From a virus, in the IMG/VR virus record IMGVR_UViG_3300045988_042754, positions 1 through 29,957 of that record: a stretch of DNA of 29,957 nt; one strand, 5' to 3'. The notes beneath the pieces were generated by a model, which made no database searches, had not been told where the DNA came from, and saw only the letters and a list, made by a program, of their open reading frames with translations. How positions within the stretch are numbered: position 1 is the stretch's first letter; every line of letters begins with the position of its first letter. The position numbers and the translations under genes are program-made. Below, in pieces: positions 7,036 to 29,957 of the stretch.

Positions 7036-7875
7036 ATGACTCAATACAGACTGGTCGGCAAGAAAGAGGTGTATATCGGTTCCGAACGCATTCCGTCCGA
7101 GTGTATTGCGGATGAAATCGGTACCATCACCGTCACACCGTCCACGACCGAAATCAGTTCGCAGGCGGGTACGTTCAACGTGCCGAACGGCGCATATGAC
7201 GAACTGTCCGCCACCATCACGGTCATTATCCCGTCCGTCCGCTTCCTTGGCCGTATCTTCCCGAACCTGTGGAAGGCCGGCAAGTTCAAGTATGAGGGCC
7301 ATGAGAACGATGACGATTACACGCCTGGTCAGGTTTCCTTCGGCGCGAACGAGTGCCGTACCACCGACCCGGTAACTGTGGTAATCCATAATGCGTGCGA
7401 TACGGATTCCTCCCAGGATATTCGTATTCCGAACGCGCTTATCGCTAACGGCGGTGAGTTCGACGTGAACCTCACGGATCCGTTCGAGGTGGAGCTTCAG
7501 ATCAGCATGATTCCGGGTGATGTGCCCGCCGTTATCTTCGGTGAAGGCTCTCTGGACGAACCGACGCTCTACAATCCGAAAACTGGACAGTATGAGCCGA
7601 TTCCGGTTCACCCCACCGATTTCACGCTCACCCCCGCCAACGTGTCCGTCGCGACCGGCTCGACCGTTGACGTGACAATCGGCGTGGTCCCGGAGAACGC
7701 GACCGAGCGTACGCCGTCCGTCACGGTTGACCATTCCGACATTGCGGCCGTGTCCGTCACCACTGACGGCAAGGTGCGTGTCTCCGGCACTAAGGCCGGT
7801 ACAGCGACCGCCACCGTCACGGTCGGCACCATCAAGAAGACGCTGCCAATCACCGTGACCGCTGCGGGCAAGTAG
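7036..7875 (+). CDS. Major tail protein with C-terminal Big_2-type Ig-like domain
   Basis: SD AGGAGG. The C-terminus TLTPANVSVATGSTVDVTIGVVPENA...VSGTKAGTATATVTVG...ITVTA is a typical bacterial Ig-like (group 2) sequence. Confidence 0.75.
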   Translation: MTQYRLVGKKEVYIGSERIPSECIADEIGTITVTPSTTEISSQAGTFNVPNGAYDELSATITVIIPSVRFLGRIFPNLWKAGKFKYEGHENDDDYTPGQVSFGANECRTTDPVTVVIHNACDTDSSQDIRIPNALIANGGEFDVNLTDPFEVELQISMIPGDVPAVIFGEGSLDEPTLYNPKTGQYEPIPVHPTDFTLTPANVSVATGSTVDVTIGVVPENATERTPSVTVDHSDIAAVSVTTDGKVRVSGTKAGTATATVTVGTIKKTLPITVTAAGK

Positions 7876-7902
7876 TAGCGTCCTAAGCCACCGGTATAAT
7901 AT

Positions 7903-7940
7903 GAACCGTCCAATCGCCTTGGTTGGGCGGTTCACTCATA
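7903..7940 (+). terminator. Attenuator-type hairpin after the major tail protein gene
   Basis: GAACCGTCC (7903-7911) pairs with GGGCGGTTC (7925-7933) with one G-U, followed by ACTCATATTT. Confidence 0.4.
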
Positions 7941-7952
7941 TTTGGAGGCATC

Positions 7953-17516: not shown

Positions 17517-18779
17517 ATGACCCGTTTTCGTAAACGTCTCATGGCGTTTCTAGCGGCGGTGCTGGCAATGTTCACGTTCACTCCCATGGCGTTCGCGGAC
17601 ATGCAGGGCATCGACGTGTCCAACTGGCAGTGCGGCATCGATATCGCCGGCACGCAGGCGGACTTTGTGGTGGTAGGCACCACATGGGGCACCGGACAGG
17701 TCAACAACAACTGCCTGGTCTCCGGCGTCAACACGGACGCCAACCGCATGATCGCCCAGGCGCAGGCATCCGGCAAGAAATTCGGCTTGTATCACTACGC
17801 GATGGGCGGCAACCCCGAGGCGGAAGCCCAATTCTTCTGGCGGAATACGTCGAACTATTGGCGTCACGGCATCGTGGCGCTCGACTGGGAGATGGACGAC
17901 AACCCCGCATGGGGCAACTGGGACTGGGTACGCCGCTTCTTGGCGGAATGCGAACGATTGAGCGGCGGTGTGCGCCCATTGCTGTACACCGGCCCTGTGG
18001 CTGGTACCATCCCGCAGGACATCCGCGACCGGTACGGTTTGTGGATCGCCCAGTACGCTAACATGAGCCCGACCGGCTACCAGGCCAATCCGTGGATGCT
18101 GGGCGCGTACGGTGAGGCCATGCGCCAGTACTCCGGCACTGGCGTGGTCAACACGTGGAGTCCCATTGACCTCGACCTGTTCCGTGGCGAGGCATGGCAG
18201 TGGGATTTGTACGCCAACCCTACCGGCGGATCCACGCCACCGGCCACACCGGCCCCATCAGCGCCCGTGCAGCCGAGCACTCCACAGCCCACTCCCAACA
18301 CGGGTGGCATCAGCCACACCATGCAGTGGGGTGAGACCATCTGGGGACTCGCCGTAGCCTACAATGCTTGGCCCCTGTCCGCATGGCATACGCCAAGCGG
18401 TGACATCAACCGCTACTACGTGGGTGATGTCGTCACCTACGGTGGCGGTTCTACTGCCACCCCCGCACCGTCCGTCGATTACAACGCGCTCGCCACCGCC
18501 GTTATTCGCGGCGACTATGGCAACGACCCGTATCGTCGGCAGCGTCTTGGCGGTAACTACGACAAGGTGATGGCGATTGTGAATGCGCGTCTGAGTGGTC
18601 AGGCCGCGCCGTCGTACACGGCGTCGAACGCGCCGAACTACGGGCGTTCCTATGTGGTTCGTGCCAATGACACGCTAAGCGGCATCGCCGCCCGGTATGG
18701 CATCAGCTACACGCTGATCCATGGGTACCGTTCCGGCAACCCCGCTCTGATCTATCCAGGTGAGGTTCTGTACTGGTAG
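17517..18779 (+). CDS. Endolysin: Sec-type signal peptide + GH25 muramidase + Pro-rich linker + LysM + CW_7 + LysM
   Basis: The N-terminus is MTRFRKRLMAFLAAVLAMFTFTPMAFA|DMQGIDVSNWQ, where GIDVSxWQ marks the start of GH25. The linker is PPATPAPSAPVQPSTPQPTP. The CW_7-like motif is LATAVIRGDYGNDPYRRQRLGGNYDKVMAIVNARL. The C-terminal LysM is YVVRANDTLSGIAARYGISY...IYPGEVLY. Confidence 0.85.
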   Translation: MTRFRKRLMAFLAAVLAMFTFTPMAFADMQGIDVSNWQCGIDIAGTQADFVVVGTTWGTGQVNNNCLVSGVNTDANRMIAQAQASGKKFGLYHYAMGGNPEAEAQFFWRNTSNYWRHGIVALDWEMDDNPAWGNWDWVRRFLAECERLSGGVRPLLYTGPVAGTIPQDIRDRYGLWIAQYANMSPTGYQANPWMLGAYGEAMRQYSGTGVVNTWSPIDLDLFRGEAWQWDLYANPTGGSTPPATPAPSAPVQPSTPQPTPNTGGISHTMQWGETIWGLAVAYNAWPLSAWHTPSGDINRYYVGDVVTYGGGSTATPAPSVDYNALATAVIRGDYGNDPYRRQRLGGNYDKVMAIVNARLSGQAAPSYTASNAPNYGRSYVVRANDTLSGIAARYGISYTLIHGYRSGNPALIYPGEVLYW

Positions 18780-18797
18780 CGTCGGCGTGTAGAATAT

Positions 18798-18838
18798 GAG
18801 GCGTATCCCGTAACAGGAGTACGCCTCTACTGTTTCTT
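18798..18838 (+). terminator. Hairpin followed by ACTGTTTCTT tail between endolysin and holin
   Basis: GAGGCGTA (18798-18805) pairs with TACGCCTC (18820-18827), followed by TACTGTTTCTT. Confidence 0.45.
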
Positions 18839-18849
18839 GGAAAGGAACC

Positions 18850-19140
18850 ATGATGGATATTACAGCCGCAACCACGCTGGCAGGTTCTCTGGTGGCTCTT
18901 GTCACCCCCGCGTTCGTGCAGGCGTTCAAGAAGTACATTCCGACCGAATACACGGGTCTTGTGTCCCTGGCCGTGTCCCTCGTGTTCGGTACCGTCGCCA
19001 TCGCCGCGACCGGTGGATTTTCCGGCAACGGCTGGGGTGTCGTGCTTGCCGCCGTCGTGGGCGTCTCCCAGACCGTGTACACGGTCGTGAATCAGGCGCT
19101 TGGCGGTCAGCTGTCTAAGGATGCTTTGGAAGGCAAATAG
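18850..19140 (+). CDS. Holin (96 aa, 2-3 TM segments, charged C-terminus)
   Basis: It lies adjacent to the endolysin gene. Hydrophobic segments LAGSLVALVTPAFV, LVSLAVSLVFGTVAIAA and WGVVLAAVVGV are present. Tandem ATGATG starts occur at 18850 and 18853. Confidence 0.65.
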   Translation: MMDITAATTLAGSLVALVTPAFVQAFKKYIPTEYTGLVSLAVSLVFGTVAIAATGGFSGNGWGVVLAAVVGVSQTVYTVVNQALGGQLSKDALEGK

Positions 19141-19157
19141 TCTTCCATCGGATATGA

Positions 19158-19197
19158 TGAAGCCCCGGTCGTGGTGATCGGGGCTTCACTTTTTTTC
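19158..19197. terminator. Strong stem-loop terminator separating the convergent plus and minus arms
   Basis: TGAAGCCCCG (19158-19167) pairs with CGGGGCTTCA (19179-19188), followed by CT and T7 on the plus strand. The minus-strand operon also ends here. Confidence 0.8.
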
Positions 19198-19752: not shown

Positions 19753-20240
19753 TGTTCGAATCCTTTCATGAAACGCTGGAAGTCGACATCGTCTTTGAAT
19801 AGCCGGTACCAGTCGATGCAGGCGTTGACTTTGCCCTCATGATCGCAGAACCGGTCGAGGATACCTGTTTCGGTTTCATGCTCGGTGAGGTACAGGCCGA
19901 TATCGATGAATACCAGATGGTCCACCTCGATGCCGCCATCCTTGTATCCGATGAGCGCCACGTTTTCGTCGTGGATCCATAGGTTGTCGGGGTGTAGGTA
20001 TGTTTCGTGTCCGGCGAGAGCGTAATAGGTGCGTCCGGTGCGGATGGCCTCGCTTGCCGGTGCGTCTCCGAAACATGCGCCGTGGAACACGTCGCCTTGG
20101 ATATAACCATGGTCGGTGATTCCATCGATGCTGCTGTACCGGTATGCTTCCGCCTTGGTCCAGTCTGTGTCGGCGTCGTATGGTGGCAGCACCTTAGTGT
20201 CGAGTGTGTAGGTGATGGTTTGGATGATGTCTGTGAACAT
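19749..20240 (-). CDS. Hypothetical protein (163 aa), accessory
   Basis: SD AAGGAG lies 6 nt before the ATG. It has its own upstream AAGGTGTTACACTGG element. I recognise no family. Confidence 0.6.
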   Translation of the reverse strand: MFTDIIQTITYTLDTKVLPPYDADTDWTKAEAYRYSSIDGITDHGYIQGDVFHGACFGDAPASEAIRTGRTYYALAGHETYLHPDNLWIHDENVALIGYKDGGIEVDHLVFIDIGLYLTEHETETGILDRFCDHEGKVNACIDWYRLFKDDVDFQRFMKGFEH

Positions 20241-20275
20241 GGGTTGCTCCTTGATGTTTATTGGGTTGGCACTTA

Positions 20276-20290
20276 CCAGTGTAACACCTT
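20276..20290 (-). promoter_or_regulatory. Extended -10-type promoter element AAGGTGTTACACTGG (copy 1)
   Basis: TGtTACACT fits TGn-TAnnnT. The element lies 36-50 nt upstream of start codon 20240. Confidence 0.5.
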
Positions 20291-20293
20291 GTG

Positions 20294-20322
20294 TGGATTT
20301 TTTCCGGCGTTTCTGCTATAAT
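20294..20322 (+). promoter_or_regulatory. Orphan plus-strand promoter: TGGATT-N17-TATAAT with TGc extended -10
   Basis: TGCTATAAT lies at 20314-20322. It sits back to back with the minus-strand element at 20276-20290. No plausible plus-strand CDS follows. Confidence 0.5.
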
Positions 20323-20327
20323 CGGTG

Positions 20328-20434
20328 AACGTGAGATTGCAGGCGGTCTCCTTACGCCTCCCTCGCGTTGGGTGATGAATGCTGAAGCCCGACCGGTTTT
20401 ATTGGGTTCCCCGGTCGGGCTTCACTGTTTCTTG
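20328..20434 (+). ncRNA. Candidate ~105-nt small RNA (promoter-to-terminator unit)
   Basis: The predicted transcription start is about 20328, after the TATAAT. An internal hairpin AGGCG/CGCCT displays the loop GTCTCCTTA, followed by CCTCCC. The unit ends in a 13-bp terminator hairpin followed by ACTGTTTCTT. Confidence 0.3.
20384..20434. terminator. 13-bp perfect stem-loop, with a T-rich tail on the plus strand only
   Basis: GAAGCCCGACCGG (20384-20396) pairs with CCGGTCGGGCTTC (20411-20423), followed by ACTGTTTCTTG. The same 11-mer tail follows the 18798 hairpin. The stem-loop lies 20 nt downstream of the minus-strand gene at 20444-20890. Confidence 0.65.
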
Positions 20435-20443
20435 ACGTGGATG

Positions 20444-20890
20444 CTAGATCTTCCAGTCGATGTTGTCTTCACCGACCTCATCGTTCCACTTGTCGTTATG
20501 GCTTCCGTCCGCATTGAAGTAAGAGGCGAGCTGTGCGGCGTCCATGGTCAGGCCGTCTCCCATGACAACGATGGGGCTTGACATGACTACACCGGTTTCG
20601 GCCTTGAACGTCCCGTATGGCATGTGTACGACCGTATGGTGTTCGCCGTCCGAACAAAGGTCCGGGGTGAACGGTTTCAACGGCGTGATTTCAATGCGGT
20701 AGGCGTCCCCGGCGTATGGTTTCGGGTCGGACAGCAGTACCGCGCCTGGAAGGATGACTTCGCCCTGGAGGCGTTCGCCGGCCACCTTGTACATGGTTTC
20801 CGCCTTCACATAGGTTTTCACTTCGTCGCTTCCAAGAAGGTACTGGGTTGGTCCGGCGACAGCGTACCAGATCCCGCTTGCGATGTGCAT
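20444..20890 (-). CDS. Hypothetical protein (148 aa), single gene insulated by hairpins
   Basis: The start was moved to ATG 20890 after AAAGGA. The ORF-track N-terminal extension runs through a hairpin and intergenic DNA. I recognise no family. Confidence 0.6.
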   Translation of the reverse strand: MHIASGIWYAVAGPTQYLLGSDEVKTYVKAETMYKVAGERLQGEVILPGAVLLSDPKPYAGDAYRIEITPLKPFTPDLCSDGEHHTVVHMPYGTFKAETGVVMSSPIVVMGDGLTMDAAQLASYFNADGSHNDKWNDEVGEDNIDWKI

Positions 20891-21004: not shown

Positions 21005-22000
21005 CTAGAACGAGCCGGTATGAACTGGCTTGAACCGGCGGCGCGGCTTCTCACGCCGGTACGTCACGCACGGATCCTCTCCGCCGCCCGCGCCGCCGAA
21101 CTTGTCCCACGCGGACTTCAGAATCCCGTCACGTTCGGACGCGGCCACCGACTCGCTTTTGCGTTCCGGCGAGACCATGGACACGAACCCGTCCCCCAGT
21201 CCGAGCGCCGTATCCCATGCGCCGTGATGGCCTTCCGACTCCATTCCGGCCAACACCATGGCGAGCTTGCAGAATCCGTCATGACGGCTGGACTTCCCAT
21301 AGGTCGGGTCGGCTATATACTTGTCCATCACCGTTTGTACGGCCTTGCAACGGCCGTTCCGGTCGGTATCCGACGATAGGAGCGGCATGGGCCCGGCCGG
21401 CGTTTCACGCGGCGGCACGGGCTTTGTCTTCATGCGCTCCAGCCACGCTTGCGGTAACGGTGCGATGTCGGCGCGTGTTGGAACGCGACCGAGGCGCGAA
21501 CCGTCCGCAGCATACCATTCGTAGCGTTCACCGGAAGGATGGACGGAAGGCCATGCGCACAGGTAACGGTGCGAGTGCTGTATCGTGTCAACGCCTCCTC
21601 CAACGGCGTCGAAGTGCAGTCCGGCAGGTACCCGGTACAGGCGATGCCGGTACGGATTGTCCTGGTTGCCGTGGCAACTGGTAACGGTCGGCGGAAGTGC
21701 CCCGAGTTCGCTTTCAAGAGCCTCGATGGTCTTAACGCCGTCTTCCTTGACCCGGTGTCCGTCCGGCGCGTCAAGGTCCAGGGCGATGATGTCTTCCGGC
21801 AGTACGACGGCCAAGTTGAAGCCCGCATTACCGCGCCACTTCATGTCGGATTCGAACCAGTGAAGCACGGTCTCACGGTCGGGGTCTTTGCCGTCGTAGC
21901 CGGTGTAGCCTTTGCGTGGCGGAAACTTGTCTTTAGGTGGTAGCGGTATGACCCTCCAGCCTTCGGCCATGTATTCGGGCGCGGCGCATGTGAACAGCAT
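21005..22000 (-). CDS. Bifunctional DNA primase/polymerase (AEP prim-pol family)
   Basis: The start was moved to ATG 22000, 6 nt after AAGGAG. The N-terminus carries EGWRVIPLPPKDKFPPRKGYTGYDG and NLAVVLPEDIIALDLDAPDGH (DxD), and a downstream SHRY motif follows. Confidence 0.7.
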   Translation of the reverse strand: MLFTCAAPEYMAEGWRVIPLPPKDKFPPRKGYTGYDGKDPDRETVLHWFESDMKWRGNAGFNLAVVLPEDIIALDLDAPDGHRVKEDGVKTIEALESELGALPPTVTSCHGNQDNPYRHRLYRVPAGLHFDAVGGGVDTIQHSHRYLCAWPSVHPSGERYEWYAADGSRLGRVPTRADIAPLPQAWLERMKTKPVPPRETPAGPMPLLSSDTDRNGRCKAVQTVMDKYIADPTYGKSSRHDGFCKLAMVLAGMESEGHHGAWDTALGLGDGFVSMVSPERKSESVAASERDGILKSAWDKFGGAGGGEDPCVTYRREKPRRRFKPVHTGSF

Positions 22001-22020
22001 TGTGATCTCCTTATGTGAAT

Positions 22021-22065
22021 GGGGTGTGGCCGGGTGATTGACCACACCCCTAGTGTAACACCTTA
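22021..22065 (-). promoter_or_regulatory. AAGGTGTTACACTAG element (copy 2) followed by a 9-bp leader hairpin
   Basis: On the minus strand the sequence reads TAAGGTGTTACACTA (22065-22051, where TAA is the helicase stop). GGGGTGTGG/CCACACCCC (22050-22021) follows, then the SD and the prim-pol ATG. Confidence 0.45.
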
Positions 22066-23670: not shown

Positions 23671-23688
23671 GTGAGTTCCTTTCTGGTT

Positions 23689-23965
23689 GGGTGACATGTC
23701 CCATGATAGCGGGGTGATGTCACCTTCGGGTGACTTCAAGTCACCCTTTACAATTCCATCACATAATCGGGTGACATGTGAAGTCACCCCGAACATCAAT
23801 GTTACCCACCAAGTCACCCAAGGTCAGACCTACGTATGTAAGGTGTTGGAGCATATCGGGTGACTTGGTTAACCATCCACTCTCTTCCATACGTTTTCAA
23901 GGAAAATTGGCAAGAAAAAATATATATATAGTAGGAACCACAATGTAACCCACCCAAGTTACCCA
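23689..23965. promoter_or_regulatory. Divergent intergenic array of GGGTGAC/GTCACCC heptamers and an AT-rich tract
   Basis: Heptamers lie at 23689, 23719, 23728, 23740, 23769, 23783, 23801, 23813, 23858, 23945 and 23958. GGGTGACTTcAAGTCACCC at 23728-23746 is a perfect palindrome. A6(TA)5 lies at 23915-23930. Dyad units lie at 23801-23819 and 23945-23965. Confidence 0.65.
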
Positions 23966-24011
23966 TTGCCTTATTTGGCGGCTTCGTGAAGGCGGTTTGC
24001 GTACGACGGTG

Positions 24012-24026
24012 AAGGTGTTACACTCG
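24012..24026 (+). promoter_or_regulatory. AAGGTGTTACACTCG element (copy 3)
   Basis: It lies 32 nt upstream of ATG 24058. Confidence 0.5.
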
Positions 24027-24522: not shown

Positions 24523-24810
24523 ATGAGAACCGACTGGCAACACTCCGCCGCATGCCGTGACCTCGACCCAGATCTGTTCGTACCCGACTCGATGGACCTA
24601 GCCGGACTCGAAGTGGCGTTATCCACGTGCGAGACGTGCCCGGTGAAATCAGAATGCGCCCGGTTCGGCGAATGGGACGGCGTGGGTAGACCGGACAAGA
24701 AGCGTCGCACCCATGCTACCGGTGTATGGGGCGGCGTCTACTACTATCCGATGGGATTGGGCACGATGGACTTGAAACAATGCCGGAAACTGTTGAGAAA
24801 ACAGGGATAA
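24523..24810 (+). CDS. whiB: WhiB-family Fe-S transcription factor
   Basis: SD AGGAGG. The protein carries the four-Cys pattern AACRDLDPDLF...CETCPVKSEC and a GVWGG turn, followed by a basic tail. Confidence 0.8.
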   Translation: MRTDWQHSAACRDLDPDLFVPDSMDLAGLEVALSTCETCPVKSECARFGEWDGVGRPDKKRRTHATGVWGGVYYYPMGLGTMDLKQCRKLLRKQG

Positions 24811-24818
24811 GTCGTTAC

Positions 24819-24833
24819 AAGGTGTTACACTGG
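24819..24833 (+). promoter_or_regulatory. AAGGTGTTACACTGG element (copy 4, identical 15-mer to copy 1)
   Basis: It ends 23 nt upstream of GTG 24857. Confidence 0.5.
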
Positions 24834-28404: not shown

Positions 28405-29691
28405 ATGGAGAAGCGTCTGAAAGTGCCGAAACCGTTTCGTCCTTTGTTCTGGTATCTGCAAGGCGAGGAAACATCGCCGTACCGGTATTATGCGTTGAGC
28501 GGTGGTCGTTCGTCCGGCAAGTCCACGACGGCCGCGATAAGCATTCTGCTACGTTGCTCGATGACATGCACCCGTGTCCTATGCGCCCGTGAGTTCCAGA
28601 ACAGTATCACGGAATCCGTGCAACGGCTTCTCGTGGATCTTATCGACGGGTACGGGCTGGTCGGGTTCACCGTGACCCGTGACGAGATTCGGCATGATAA
28701 CGGTAGCGTAATCATGTTCAAGGGTTTGCACAACAACGAGCAGACCATCAAGAGCACTGAAGGCGTGGACGTTTGTTGGGTGGAGGAGGCGCAGACCATC
28801 ACGGAACCCTCATTGGAGACGCTTATACCGACCATCCGCAAGGAAGGGTCGTATCTTATCTTCACCTGGAACCCGCTGACCGAGGATGACCCTGTGATGC
28901 GCCGGTTCGTGTCCAGTCCAACGCCGGGCGACAAGGCGATGACCTACTACTGTCATACGACGTACAAGGACATGGAGGCTGTCGGCTTGTTGAACGACAC
29001 GATTCGTCTTCAGGTAGAGGCTGCGGAAGGCTCACCCGAGTTCGCACACACATGGCTTGGCCGTCCGTACAACACGACGAACAACCAGATCATAAGCCGT
29101 ACCGAGCTGGACGCCGCGTTGACGGACACGACGCCTTACAACGCCTCGCATGTGCTTGGCGTGGATATCGCCCGGTATGGCAACGATCGTACAGCGATGG
29201 CCGATTGTTGGGGGAATGTCGTGTGGCGTGTGGACTCGTGGCGTCATGCGTCGATACCGGAGACGGCGCGGCGCGTGAAGGCGTATGCGGTGGAGGTGAA
29301 CGCGACCGCCGTACATGTGGACGATACCGGTGTGGGTGGCGGAGTAACCGACCTGTTGCGCGAGTGGGGCGTGCCTGTGGTGGGTGTGAACTTCGCGCAG
29401 AAGGCCGTTGAACCGCGCAAGTATCCGAATGCGAACAGTGAGATGTGGTTCAATTTCGCCGGTTCGATTTCCAGACATGAATTGAACTTGAATGCGTCGA
29501 TGCCTCAGCTTGAGGATTTGTGTGCCGAACTGACGGGTCGTGGCTGGAAGCTGGATGCGCAGGGCAGGCGTGCGGTCGAGTCGAAGTCGGACTTCAAGGC
29601 CGTGGCCGGCGCGTCCCCCGATCTTGCGGACGCGGTGCTCTTATCCGCGTACAGACCTCCGAAGATGCCTTCATGGAACGTGGTGGTGTAA
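28405..29691 (+). CDS. terL: Terminase large subunit (Terminase_3 / PBSX-type)
   Basis: SD GGAGG. Walker A is LSGGRSSGKST and Walker B plus the catalytic Glu is VCWVEEAQ. The C-terminal nuclease half contains GVDIARYGNDRTA. Confidence 0.85.
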   Translation: MEKRLKVPKPFRPLFWYLQGEETSPYRYYALSGGRSSGKSTTAAISILLRCSMTCTRVLCAREFQNSITESVQRLLVDLIDGYGLVGFTVTRDEIRHDNGSVIMFKGLHNNEQTIKSTEGVDVCWVEEAQTITEPSLETLIPTIRKEGSYLIFTWNPLTEDDPVMRRFVSSPTPGDKAMTYYCHTTYKDMEAVGLLNDTIRLQVEAAEGSPEFAHTWLGRPYNTTNNQIISRTELDAALTDTTPYNASHVLGVDIARYGNDRTAMADCWGNVVWRVDSWRHASIPETARRVKAYAVEVNATAVHVDDTGVGGGVTDLLREWGVPVVGVNFAQKAVEPRKYPNANSEMWFNFAGSISRHELNLNASMPQLEDLCAELTGRGWKLDAQGRRAVESKSDFKAVAGASPDLADAVLLSAYRPPKMPSWNVVV

Positions 29692-29727: not shown

Positions 29728-29867
29728 AGGTGACTTTGGGTGACCTAAAAAAAACACCTCACCCAAGTTACCCAAATTACCCATTTTGACCCCGAATTTC
29801 AGGTAACGTTCAGGAAACATTAGGGGACTTGAAGCAAAGTCACCCAAAGTCACCCACCAAGTCACCC
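29728..29867. promoter_or_regulatory. Left half of the TerL-portal intergenic heptamer array
   Basis: AGGTGAC (29728) and GGGTGAC (29738) are in inverted orientation. CTCACCC, GTTACCC (29767) and ATTACCC (29776) follow. Three direct GTCACCC copies lie at 29839, 29849 and 29861, spaced 10 and 12 bp apart. T8 (29705-29712) and A8 (29747-29754) flank the array. Confidence 0.6.
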
Positions 29868-29957
29868 GGTCTAAAGACATACGGGAGTAGGGCTAAGTCA
29901 ATGTGGGTAACTTGGGTGACCACCTACTCTGTCCAAAAATTTTTAAGAAAAAAAAAG
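29863..29957. repeat. Terminal direct repeat, copy 2 (identical to 1-95)
   Basis: Exact 95-nt match to the window start. Confidence 0.95.

Follow-up and report, generated by a model that had tools for sequence, protein, structure and literature searches.

A probable promoter-to-terminator unit in the minus-strand gene block

The stretch of DNA analysed here (the window, 29,957 bp, 56.7% G+C; IMG/VR record IMGVR_UViG_3300045988_042754) is the whole, circularly permuted genome of a small, uncultured siphovirus-like phage, of which only metagenome contigs are known. Its minus-strand block (23670-19205) comprises six genes, which code for a 535-amino-acid (aa) protein, prim-pol (21005-22000), and proteins of 148, 163, 78, and 104 aa. 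We studied the 203-bp gap (20241-20443) that extends from the ATG of the 163-aa gene (20240) to the stop codon of the 148-aa gene (20444), and that most likely holds a self-contained gene for a non-coding RNA of ~100 nt, predicted to be read from the plus strand. An initial annotation of the window had proposed a plus-strand unit of this kind, with a small RNA complementary to Shine-Dalgarno (SD) sequences as its product. All of the sequence elements on which this proposal was based were confirmed, a few coordinates being corrected slightly, and the case for them grew stronger when relatives were compared.

The plus strand of the gap carries, at the annotated position 20314-20322, an extended −10 element, TGCTATAAT. 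It is part of a conserved island, TTCTGCTATAAT (20310-20322; TGn plus TATAAT), that is not accompanied by a conserved −35 element. Such a promoter, of the host sigma-A type, would start transcription near 20329, in a variable discriminator and start-site zone (20323-20335); given that starts usually lie 6-8 nt from the −10 box, an A near 20328-20329 was taken as the putative start. The sequence TGNTATAAT occurs only here in the window, and at least one copy was found in 21 of 100 shuffles, so on single-sequence evidence a chance occurrence is possible. The divergent promoter element of the 163-aa gene, AAGGTGTTACACTGG (20276-20290, minus strand; extended −10, TGT-TACACT), lies back to back with it as had been described, the minus-strand TACACT and the plus-strand TATAAT hexamers being 33 bp apart rather than ~34 bp.

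Three elements follow on the plus strand. Stem-loop 1 (SL1, 20334-20364) is predicted to have an outer stem, GAG(G)/CCUC, and an inner stem in which AGGCG (20341-20345) pairs with CGCCT (20355-20359), displaying a 9-nt loop, GUCUCCUUA (20346-20354), that contains CUCCUU. The inner stem and its loop, both proposed at the outset, are present in the minimum-energy fold. The linker (20365-20382), predicted to be single-stranded, contains the invariant sequence UUGGGUGAUGAAUGC. The terminator hairpin (20383-20424) has two 14-nt arms (20383-20396 and 20411-20424) around a 14-nt loop, UUUUAUUGGGUUCC; it had been recognized initially as 13 bp at 20384-20423. A U-rich tail (20425-20434), which reads GUGUUUCUUG in relatives, comes next, and conservation stops a few bases beyond it. 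On the plus strand, a stem of 14 bp in the window and 16 bp in most relatives is thus followed by a conserved GUGUUUCUU, the layout of an intrinsic terminator, while the minus-strand tail of the hairpin, AGCAUUCAUC, is U-poor. Plus-strand termination, as proposed, agrees with this asymmetry. A simple terminator scan had missed the hairpin, whose loop is longer than 8 nt.

The 11-mer ACTGTTTCTTG, which starts at the last base of the hairpin (20424-20434), recurs exactly after the hairpin on the endolysin side, at 18829-18839 (one position to the right of the annotated 18828-18838); with up to one mismatch allowed, there are three matches versus 0.32 expected. The repeat had been taken as an argument for termination, and we considered it as a common terminator signal. 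It is specific to the window and a coincidence: in the 17 other relatives the hairpin is followed by AGTGTTTC, and the holin-side copy has a T-run of variable length.

Coding sequences and leaders all lie outside the predicted RNA (20329-20434), whose only overlap is with the 3' untranslated region of the 148-aa transcript, or with possible read-through RNA. The RNA is, therefore, not a cis-antisense RNA in the sense of one transcribed opposite to, and overlapping, its target. Both strands of the region fold well, with z-scores of −3.6 for the plus and −5.0 for the minus strand.

Conservation in close relatives

We compared 18 distinct versions of the intergenic region, collected from IMG/VR, JGI/ENA metagenomes, and Logan assemblies. 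Identity of the 148-aa protein in these relatives goes down to 74%, and a gap of ~200 bp is kept in all of them. Mean pairwise identity was 0.98 for the terminator hairpin, 0.96 for SL1 together with CCUCCC, 0.93 for the linker, and 0.97 for the extended −10 island, versus 0.88 for the 148-aa coding end and 0.80 for the 163-aa coding start. The body of the predicted RNA (0.93-0.98) is, thus, more conserved than the coding DNA on either side of it (0.80-0.88). Lower values were obtained for the 12 nt after the stop codon (0.85, falling to 0.42 versus the two most distant relatives, L021 and L022), the start-site zone (0.77), and the −35 zone between the two promoters (0.71). In comparisons with L021 and L022, segments of the RNA body and the −10 island were at 0.86-1.00 and the flanking coding DNA at 0.71-0.77.

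The conserved block starts with TTCTGnTATAAT, skips the variable discriminator, spans the predicted RNA with its 14-nt hairpin loop, and stops after GUGUUUC, a tail that is kept even in L021 and L022. The length of the hairpin loop differs by −1 to +2 nt in relatives. Variation is found at the n of TGn, in the −35 and start-site zones, and in the DNA past the U-rich tail, positions at which a plus-strand gene would tolerate change. TATAAT is kept in 18 of 18 relatives and TG in 17 of 18, the n position is C, A, or T, and both flanks of the island vary. Such a pattern is what would be expected as the signature of an extended −10 element read on the plus strand, unlike that of an upstream element of the minus-strand promoter. 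The inner stem of SL1 is invariant, as is the linker except for a 3-nt patch. A 5-bp helix that could form in the linker (GCAUU/AAUGC) was discarded, since this patch changes without compensation. The case above chance is made by the comparative evidence, not by the single sequence.

Coding capacity and known RNA families

The annotated lack of a credible plus-strand coding sequence was confirmed, and alignments of the relatives contain no open reading frame (ORF) conserved on either strand. Three candidates were rejected. A 96-aa plus-strand ORF (20291-20581) runs through the hairpin loop, where length indels break the frame. A plus-strand micro-ORF of 13-16 codons (TTG/GTG...TGA) is stopped at its second codon in L007, shifted in frame in L027, and without a start in L006-type sequences. 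A minus-strand micro-ORF after AAGGAG (CTG start) suffers frameshifts in six relatives and loses its start in two. We also considered a replication origin with iterons; ACCCAAT is not enriched genome-wide, and the region is neither AT-rich nor iteron-bearing. A better candidate for an origin or control region is 23690-23990, which is AT-rich and contains dense GTCACCC/GGGTGAC repeats and a (TA)n run.

An Rfam (release 15) search of the whole window at gathering thresholds, the kind of scan suggested at the outset, returned no family, and ARAGORN detected no tRNA or tmRNA. At E≤10, positions 20200-20500 gave only sub-threshold matches (scores versus gathering scores: Hairpin ribozyme 25.1/65, ctRNA_pGA1 20.9/45, sar 14.2/43).

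As in a small RNA gene, there is, by sequence and conservation, a putative promoter of its own in the right orientation, and the absence of a conserved ORF is combined with nucleotide conservation above neutral. As in an SD-blocking small RNA, the predicted folds leave single-stranded a CU-rich motif complementary to an SD. A plus-strand promoter-to-terminator unit for a non-coding RNA, as first proposed, is the best reading of the conservation pattern, and we consider it likely that a discrete plus-strand RNA is made. Phage small RNAs and SD-occluding small RNAs are well known. Since the region is accounted for neither by an Rfam family or a tRNA nor by a conserved ORF, the predicted RNA is best classified as a new phage small RNA family of a known kind, not as a new principle.

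Corresponding units in two distant lineages

The promoter has counterparts outside the close clade, in two further lineages of prim-pol-bearing phage genomes. In L034, whose prim-pol is 67% identical to that of the window, the 148-aa gene is missing and the unit directly follows prim-pol. Its promoter, TTGCGC-17-TGCTACACT, has the same place and orientation as in the window and is followed by a spacer of ~14 nt; TGCTACACT and TGCTATAAT both consist of TGn and TANNNT, the L034 hexamer being TACACT. The next gene has a divergent promoter, TTGAAA-17-TAGAAT, and the −10 hexamers are 33 bp apart, as in the window. The L034 version of SL1 has a GGAGCC/GGCUCC stem, extended by GCGG/CCGC, and a loop, UUCCUUCUCCUU, that displays CUCCUU. 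It is followed by CUGGGUGAUG, with the linker sequence GGGUGAUG kept, and by a 16-bp terminator hairpin, in which differences from the window are compensated in both arms, and a U-rich tail.

An analogous convergent unit after prim-pol was found in 16-kb phages (L043-L047 and L049), whose prim-pol is 51% identical to that of L034. In L043 (8960-9130; also in L044-L047 and L049), it consists of a TTGACT-16-TATAAT promoter, a CGUAGU/ACUACG stem, CUCCUUC single-stranded 3' of the stem, and a hairpin. The ~16-kb phages also carry a capsid-protease fusion, HNH, and an SPP1-type holin. The opposite strand of the L043 unit contains a well-formed SD-ATG ORF of 13 codons (MPNYDPHYTHIRL), which is not conserved elsewhere.

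The predicted RNAs of the three lineages share a plan of 5' stem-loop, linker, and terminator. Stems are rewritten and yet pair, both in SL1 (AGGCG/CGCCU, GGAGCC/GGCUCC, and CGUAGU/ACUACG) and in the terminator (GAAGCCCGACCGG, AAGAAAGCCCCGACUU, and AGCCCUCAGC), and the predicted RNAs have fold z-scores of −4.7 (window type), −7.1 (L034), and −5.9 (L043). CUCCUU is predicted to be single-stranded in all three, in the SL1 loop in the window type and L034 and 3' of the stem in L043. The structural evidence is this rewriting between lineages, since no compensatory change is seen within the close clade; with only three lineages, the rewritten stems are putative positional homologues. The module appears portable, because it lies at the end of the replication operon in all three, 16-kb genomes included. 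The more distant prim-pol loci L035 and L048 are plasmid- or island-like, and no comparable unit was found there.

An ordinary bidirectional terminator beside a promoter region, with an accidental likeness to a promoter and to an anti-SD RNA, is an extremely improbable explanation of the block. It is true that the single TGNTATAAT is not significant alone, and that an 8-nt match to an SD, such as the one described below, is expected by chance. A terminator, however, needs no invariant 14-nt loop, invariant 17-nt flank, or second conserved stem-loop, and the block, present in three lineages, exceeds coding DNA in conservation.

Complementarity to leaders of the replication operon

Three segments of the predicted RNA are complementary to minus-strand leaders. 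As annotated, the 8-mer UCUCCUUA of the SL1 loop (20347-20354) is the exact complement of UAAGGAGA in the prim-pol SD region (22006-22013, minus strand); a single match of this length is expected by chance, and the match to the prim-pol SD recurs in L034. Two further complementarities are absent from the initial annotation. The 535-aa gene opens the minus-strand operon, and UCACCCAA(C) in its leader is a complement of the invariant linker sequence UUGGGUGA; the match, to UCACCCAAC (23686-23694, minus strand), is 9 nt long. The terminator loop matches 11 nt, AACCCAAUAAA, in the leader of the 163-aa gene (20257-20267, minus strand). The latter match is a direct repeat (20257-20267/20398-20408) and the longest one among 37 leaders; an 11-mer match anywhere among these leaders was equalled in 18 of 500 shuffles. 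The SD of the 163-aa gene, AAGGAG (20247-20252), also has a 6-nt match to the SL1 loop. Three matches of at least 8 nt (11, 9, and 8 nt) among the six minus-strand leaders were obtained in 8 of 500 shuffles (p~0.016).

The best matches of the L034 RNA are to the leader of the first gene (CAUCACCCAG, 10 nt, at −22) and to the prim-pol SD (AAGGAGAAG, 9 nt, at −15). Both were equalled in 1 of 500 shuffles, with an enrichment p of ~0.002-0.03. The two genes and the leader positions are the same as in the window, and the matches have lineage-specific extensions: AAGGAGAAG in L034 versus UAAGGAGA in the window, and a motif that ends in CCCAG in L034 and in CCCAA in the window, in the RNA gene as well as in the leader.

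Such extensions bear on whether the RNA would act on the host. It could repress host mRNAs by pairing with their SDs, as 6C- or RoxS-type RNAs do, or titrate a factor of the host or the phage by mimicking the 16S 3' end. Any AAGGAG-type SD is a complement of CUCCUU, which is also similar to the 16S tail, and the promoter is of the host type. The matches to the phage's own leaders through lineage-specific extensions, together with the invariant linker, favour phage targets, and we regard host targets as highly unlikely.

AAGGAG occurs only three times in the genome: in the SDs of prim-pol and of the 163-aa gene, and as the complement of the SL1 loop. The loop had been said to complement the two SD types of the phage. 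For AAGGAG, this holds for the SDs of these two genes, and the motif is not a general SD type, since it is found in only 2 of 37 leaders, most of which use GGAGG. The second part of the proposal, that CCUCCC is displayed as well, fails, the motif being base-paired in the predicted and consensus structures. In the plus-strand RNA, CUCCUU and UUGGGUGAUG would be expected to be single-stranded.

The minus strand of the RNA gene itself looks like a leader: it reads CAUCACCCAA, 4 nt, GAGGGAGG, and then UAAGGAGAC, i.e., ACCCAA, a spacer, and an SD. ACCCAA is present at −22 to −26 in the leaders of the 535-aa gene, the 163-aa gene, and the first plus-strand gene (24058), versus 0.18 expected, and each of these leaders follows a promoter-bearing gap. 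Because this strand reads like a copy of an early-gene leader, a plus-strand RNA is complementary to leaders.

The same likeness allows a different explanation, in which the minus strand or the DNA is the functional form. The block would then be a terminator plus a leader-like intercistronic element (ACCCAA, GGGAGG, AAGGAG) that binds or decoys ribosomes or a translational regulator, or that is a DNA site of a phage protein, and TATAAT would be an upstream element of the 163-aa promoter. The minus strand folds at least as well as the plus strand (z = −5.0 vs −3.6), a wobble change in L006 and the outer stem of L021 fit it better, the motifs have the mRNA sense that they have in true leaders, and CATCACCC is similar to GTCACCC, whose sites cluster in the control region. 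On the other hand, the n in TGn is free, and L034 has TACACT in place of TATAAT, as expected of a plus-strand −10 element and not of an A/T-rich upstream element. The conserved U-rich tail also belongs to the plus strand, the SD-like motifs are followed by no start codon or conserved micro-ORF (frameshifts in six relatives, start lost in two), and there is only one, imperfect, GTCACCC-like site. This explanation is unlikely, though it deserves serious consideration.

Proposed function and alternatives

The proposal that we favour can be stated as follows. Positions 20310-20434 would be a plus-strand small RNA gene, transcribed from the TGCTATAAT promoter into an RNA of ~100 nt that would end near 20430, at the 14-16-bp hairpin and U-rich tail. 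Its three parts, SL1 displaying CUCCUU, the UUGGGUGAUGAAUGC linker, and the terminator with its conserved loop, would make it a chaperone-independent, base-pairing "anti-leader" regulator of the phage's minus-strand replication operon. The linker would pair with the 535-aa leader, the SL1 loop with the prim-pol SD, and the terminator and SL1 loops with the 163-aa leader and SD. Pairing may keep ribosomes from binding or lead to cleavage. As the genome replicates, so does the RNA gene, and the RNA might therefore serve as a dosage- or time-dependent brake on replication-gene expression. This full statement, regulation of replication-operon leaders by pairing, is tentative: we consider it finely balanced, with doubt slightly prevailing.

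The anti-SD part of the initial annotation, accordingly qualified, gains from the retention of CUCCUU in three lineages and loses in that energy ranking does not single out replication genes. Target prediction over the leaders gave a similar picture, with exact-match enrichment for the replication operon and ambiguous energies. Unrestricted duplex prediction produced meaningless whole-length duplexes; when duplexes were restricted to segments, replication leaders ranked only second each, beside leaders of late genes, and the duplex of the linker with the 535-aa leader was unremarkable versus coding-sequence controls (fraction 0.098).

Several other observations weigh against the proposal as well. 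The −35 sequence is weak (TGGATT, 3/6), and a simple sigma-70 scan did not list the promoter. Within the close clade, the SL1 loop varies at 3 of its 9 positions, while no change is seen in the inner stem of SL1 or at 18 of the 21 positions of the linker. The CUCCUU core is altered in two relatives, to CUCUUU, where wobble pairing is possible, and to CUCAUU, where it is not. Compensatory base changes in the close clade amount to 0 of 30 predicted pairs, and the two informative wobble changes in the hairpin favour opposite strands (L006 minus, L028 plus). Leader variants, e.g., CACCCAGCC in L001 and L007, are uncompensated in the RNA, and the match in L043 is not significant. Finally, the k-mers shared with leaders could reflect common descent, from an old copy of a leader, and not selection for pairing.

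The position of the unit would also allow an effect in cis. Convergent transcription from TGCTATAAT could interfere with read-through from prim-pol and the 148-aa gene into the 163-aa unit, or the RNA could pair with the perfectly complementary read-through RNA and cause double-strand-specific cleavage, as lambda OOP does on cII, the leader matches being incidental. In all three lineages, the unit converges on the upstream operon and has its hairpin in common with it, the minus side of the hairpin has no U-tract, which makes read-through plausible, and perfect antisense pairing requires no special motif. An action in cis would, however, leave unexplained why CUCCUU, the GGGUGAUG linker, and the stem-loop architecture are retained amid rewritten surroundings, and why the body is more constrained than coding DNA; in L043, moreover, there is no downstream gene to shield from read-through. 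We judge this explanation to be distinctly unlikely.

Plasmid countertranscripts (Corynebacterium pGA1 ctRNA RF00236, R1 CopA, and ColE1 RNA I) are small, constitutive stem-loop RNAs with intrinsic terminators, which repress replication genes through loop contacts with the rep leader and provide dosage-dependent negative feedback. An RNA of a lytic actinophage that acts in trans in the manner of a countertranscript, i.e., a structured antisense copy of early leaders, growing in gene dosage during genome replication, that shuts off translation of the prim-pol module as a copy-number or timing brake, is a more specific version of the pairing proposal, and one that we think unlikely to hold in full. 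Countertranscripts are antisense to the rep leader and overlap it, whereas the present gene lies 1.6-3.3 kb from the prim-pol and 535-aa leaders and is partly complementary to them. The region, at 20.9 bits versus a gathering score of 45, is not a member of the ctRNA_pGA1 family.

Among phage RNAs, the c4 antisense RNA of P1/P7 is short and structured, and its loops pair in trans near the ribosome-binding site (RBS) of a phage mRNA, blocking translation (PMC12197685). As in the present case, the gene for the RNA resembles the leader of its target copied in inverted orientation. c4, however, is processed from the transcript of its target and controls an antirepressor, and thus immunity, in temperate enterobacterial phages, while the present RNA would have its own promoter and terminator, is convergent to a replication operon, and has no sequence or Rfam similarity to c4. 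Lambda OOP (77 nt) has its own promoter, is convergent with an early-gene 3' end by the replication genes, and ends at a strong hairpin (PMC12197685). OOP overlaps the end of cII coding sequence as a true cis-antisense RNA acting with RNase III; the present RNA would stop ~10 nt before the 148-aa stop codon and overlap only the 3' untranslated region.

The 6C small RNA of high-GC Gram-positive bacteria uses loops to pair, without a chaperone, with purine-rich RBSs, and its targets include the replication gene dnaB (PMC6486639). C/U-rich loops that pair with purine-rich RBS regions are the likeness here, as they are for RoxS/RsaE-type RNAs. 6C, though, is a host RNA with C-rich loops, while the present loops are CU-rich (CUCCUU) and phage-encoded, and no Rfam match to 6C was obtained even at E≤10.

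A phage small RNA had been called unusual for an actinobacterial phage. This is overstated: highly expressed intergenic non-coding RNAs have been reported for Rhodococcus phage WC1 (nc_1-3) and for mycobacteriophages D29 and Kampy (PMC10986025). Those RNAs were found by RNA-seq and have no proposed mechanism, while the present one is predicted from sequence alone, and no cultured phage resembles the present region at the DNA level. Little has been charted of the regulatory RNAs of actinobacterial phages, beyond abundant intergenic transcripts seen in RNA-seq without a mechanism. The locus offers a compact, testable candidate, with a predicted promoter, ends, and structure, three candidate sites, and variants from three lineages. 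If the proposal is true, small lytic phages of high-GC Gram-positive bacteria time or limit their replication genes by chaperone-independent RBS pairing, and a new RNA family becomes available for annotating metagenomic phage genomes.

Genome context and additional observations

Plus-strand genes run from ~24058 through an exonuclease, RusA, and terminase (28405-29691), past the window ends into the portal gene (255-2486), and on to structural genes, a GH25/CW_7/LysM endolysin (17517-18779), and a holin (18853-19140). The phage shows no lysogeny genes. A WhiB gene is located at 24523-24810, and prim-pol is only ~30% identical to proteins of Gordonia and Mycobacterium phages; because of the WhiB gene and these homologues, an actinobacterial host is indicated. 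DNA and protein searches of 50,697 phage records with the flanking genes gave no cultured-phage match, and two scans of bacterial genomes for a host or prophage found none that carries the region. The 148-, 163-, and 535-aa proteins have no match in Pfam, PHROG, or PDB.

At L035:1-7071, on a plasmid-like contig or one resembling an integrative and conjugative element, a prim-pol gene whose product is 39% identical to that of the window lies beside Rep_1 and FtsK/SpoIIIE genes. This locus hints at plasmid relatives of the phage replication module. In the phage itself, the prim-pol leader contains a conserved hairpin (22016-22046, minus strand; GGGGUGUGG...CCACACCCC, loop UCAAUCACCCGG) between the promoter element and the SD, and the hairpin loop has AUCACCC in common with the minus strand of the small RNA gene.

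The 15-mer AAGGTGTTACACTGG has four copies in the window with up to one mismatch, at 20276-20290 (minus), 22050-22064 (minus), 24012-24026 (plus), and 24819-24833 (plus), versus 0.57 expected at up to three mismatches. Every copy is upstream of a gene and oriented with it. In L021 and L022, the minus-strand promoter reads TTGACG-17-TACACT, TTGACG being added 17 nt from the −10 element. AAGGTGTTACACTGG probably represents the early promoter class of the phage, which may depend on the phage-encoded WhiB.

There are 20 occurrences of the heptamer GTCACCC/GGGTGAC, grouped into two clusters. One (23689-23864) lies in the divergent control region upstream of the 535-aa gene and includes several inverted pairs, GGGTGAC-N5-GTCACCC; the other (29738-29920 and 52-148) lies in the ~520-bp non-coding gap between terminase and portal. 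The motif was found in L034, too. The heptamers are probably sites of a phage DNA-binding protein that mark an operator, origin, or packaging region. Adjoining them, between the divergent early genes, is an AT-rich (TA)n run at ~23905-23935 (aaaaaatatatatatagtagg), a candidate DNA-unwinding element or origin.

A strong hairpin at 19158-19188, between the stops of the holin and 104-aa genes, has a T7 tail on the plus strand only. Both transcription directions converge at this point, and the minus-strand operon ends without a U-tract. The endolysin-holin spacer (18787-18852) contains a conserved −10-like TAGAAT, a conserved hairpin (GAGGCGTATCC/GGAGTACGCCTC) 7 nt downstream, a T-run of variable length among relatives, and then the holin SD. 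The spacer may provide the holin with a promoter of its own and an attenuator-like leader, by which lysis would be timed. Finally, one of only three TATAAT hexamers in the genome is found at 7890-7950, in the gap after the gene that ends at 7875 (GGTATAAT), together with a short inverted repeat ahead of the next gene, and may serve as a promoter within the structural operon or as a regulatory site there.

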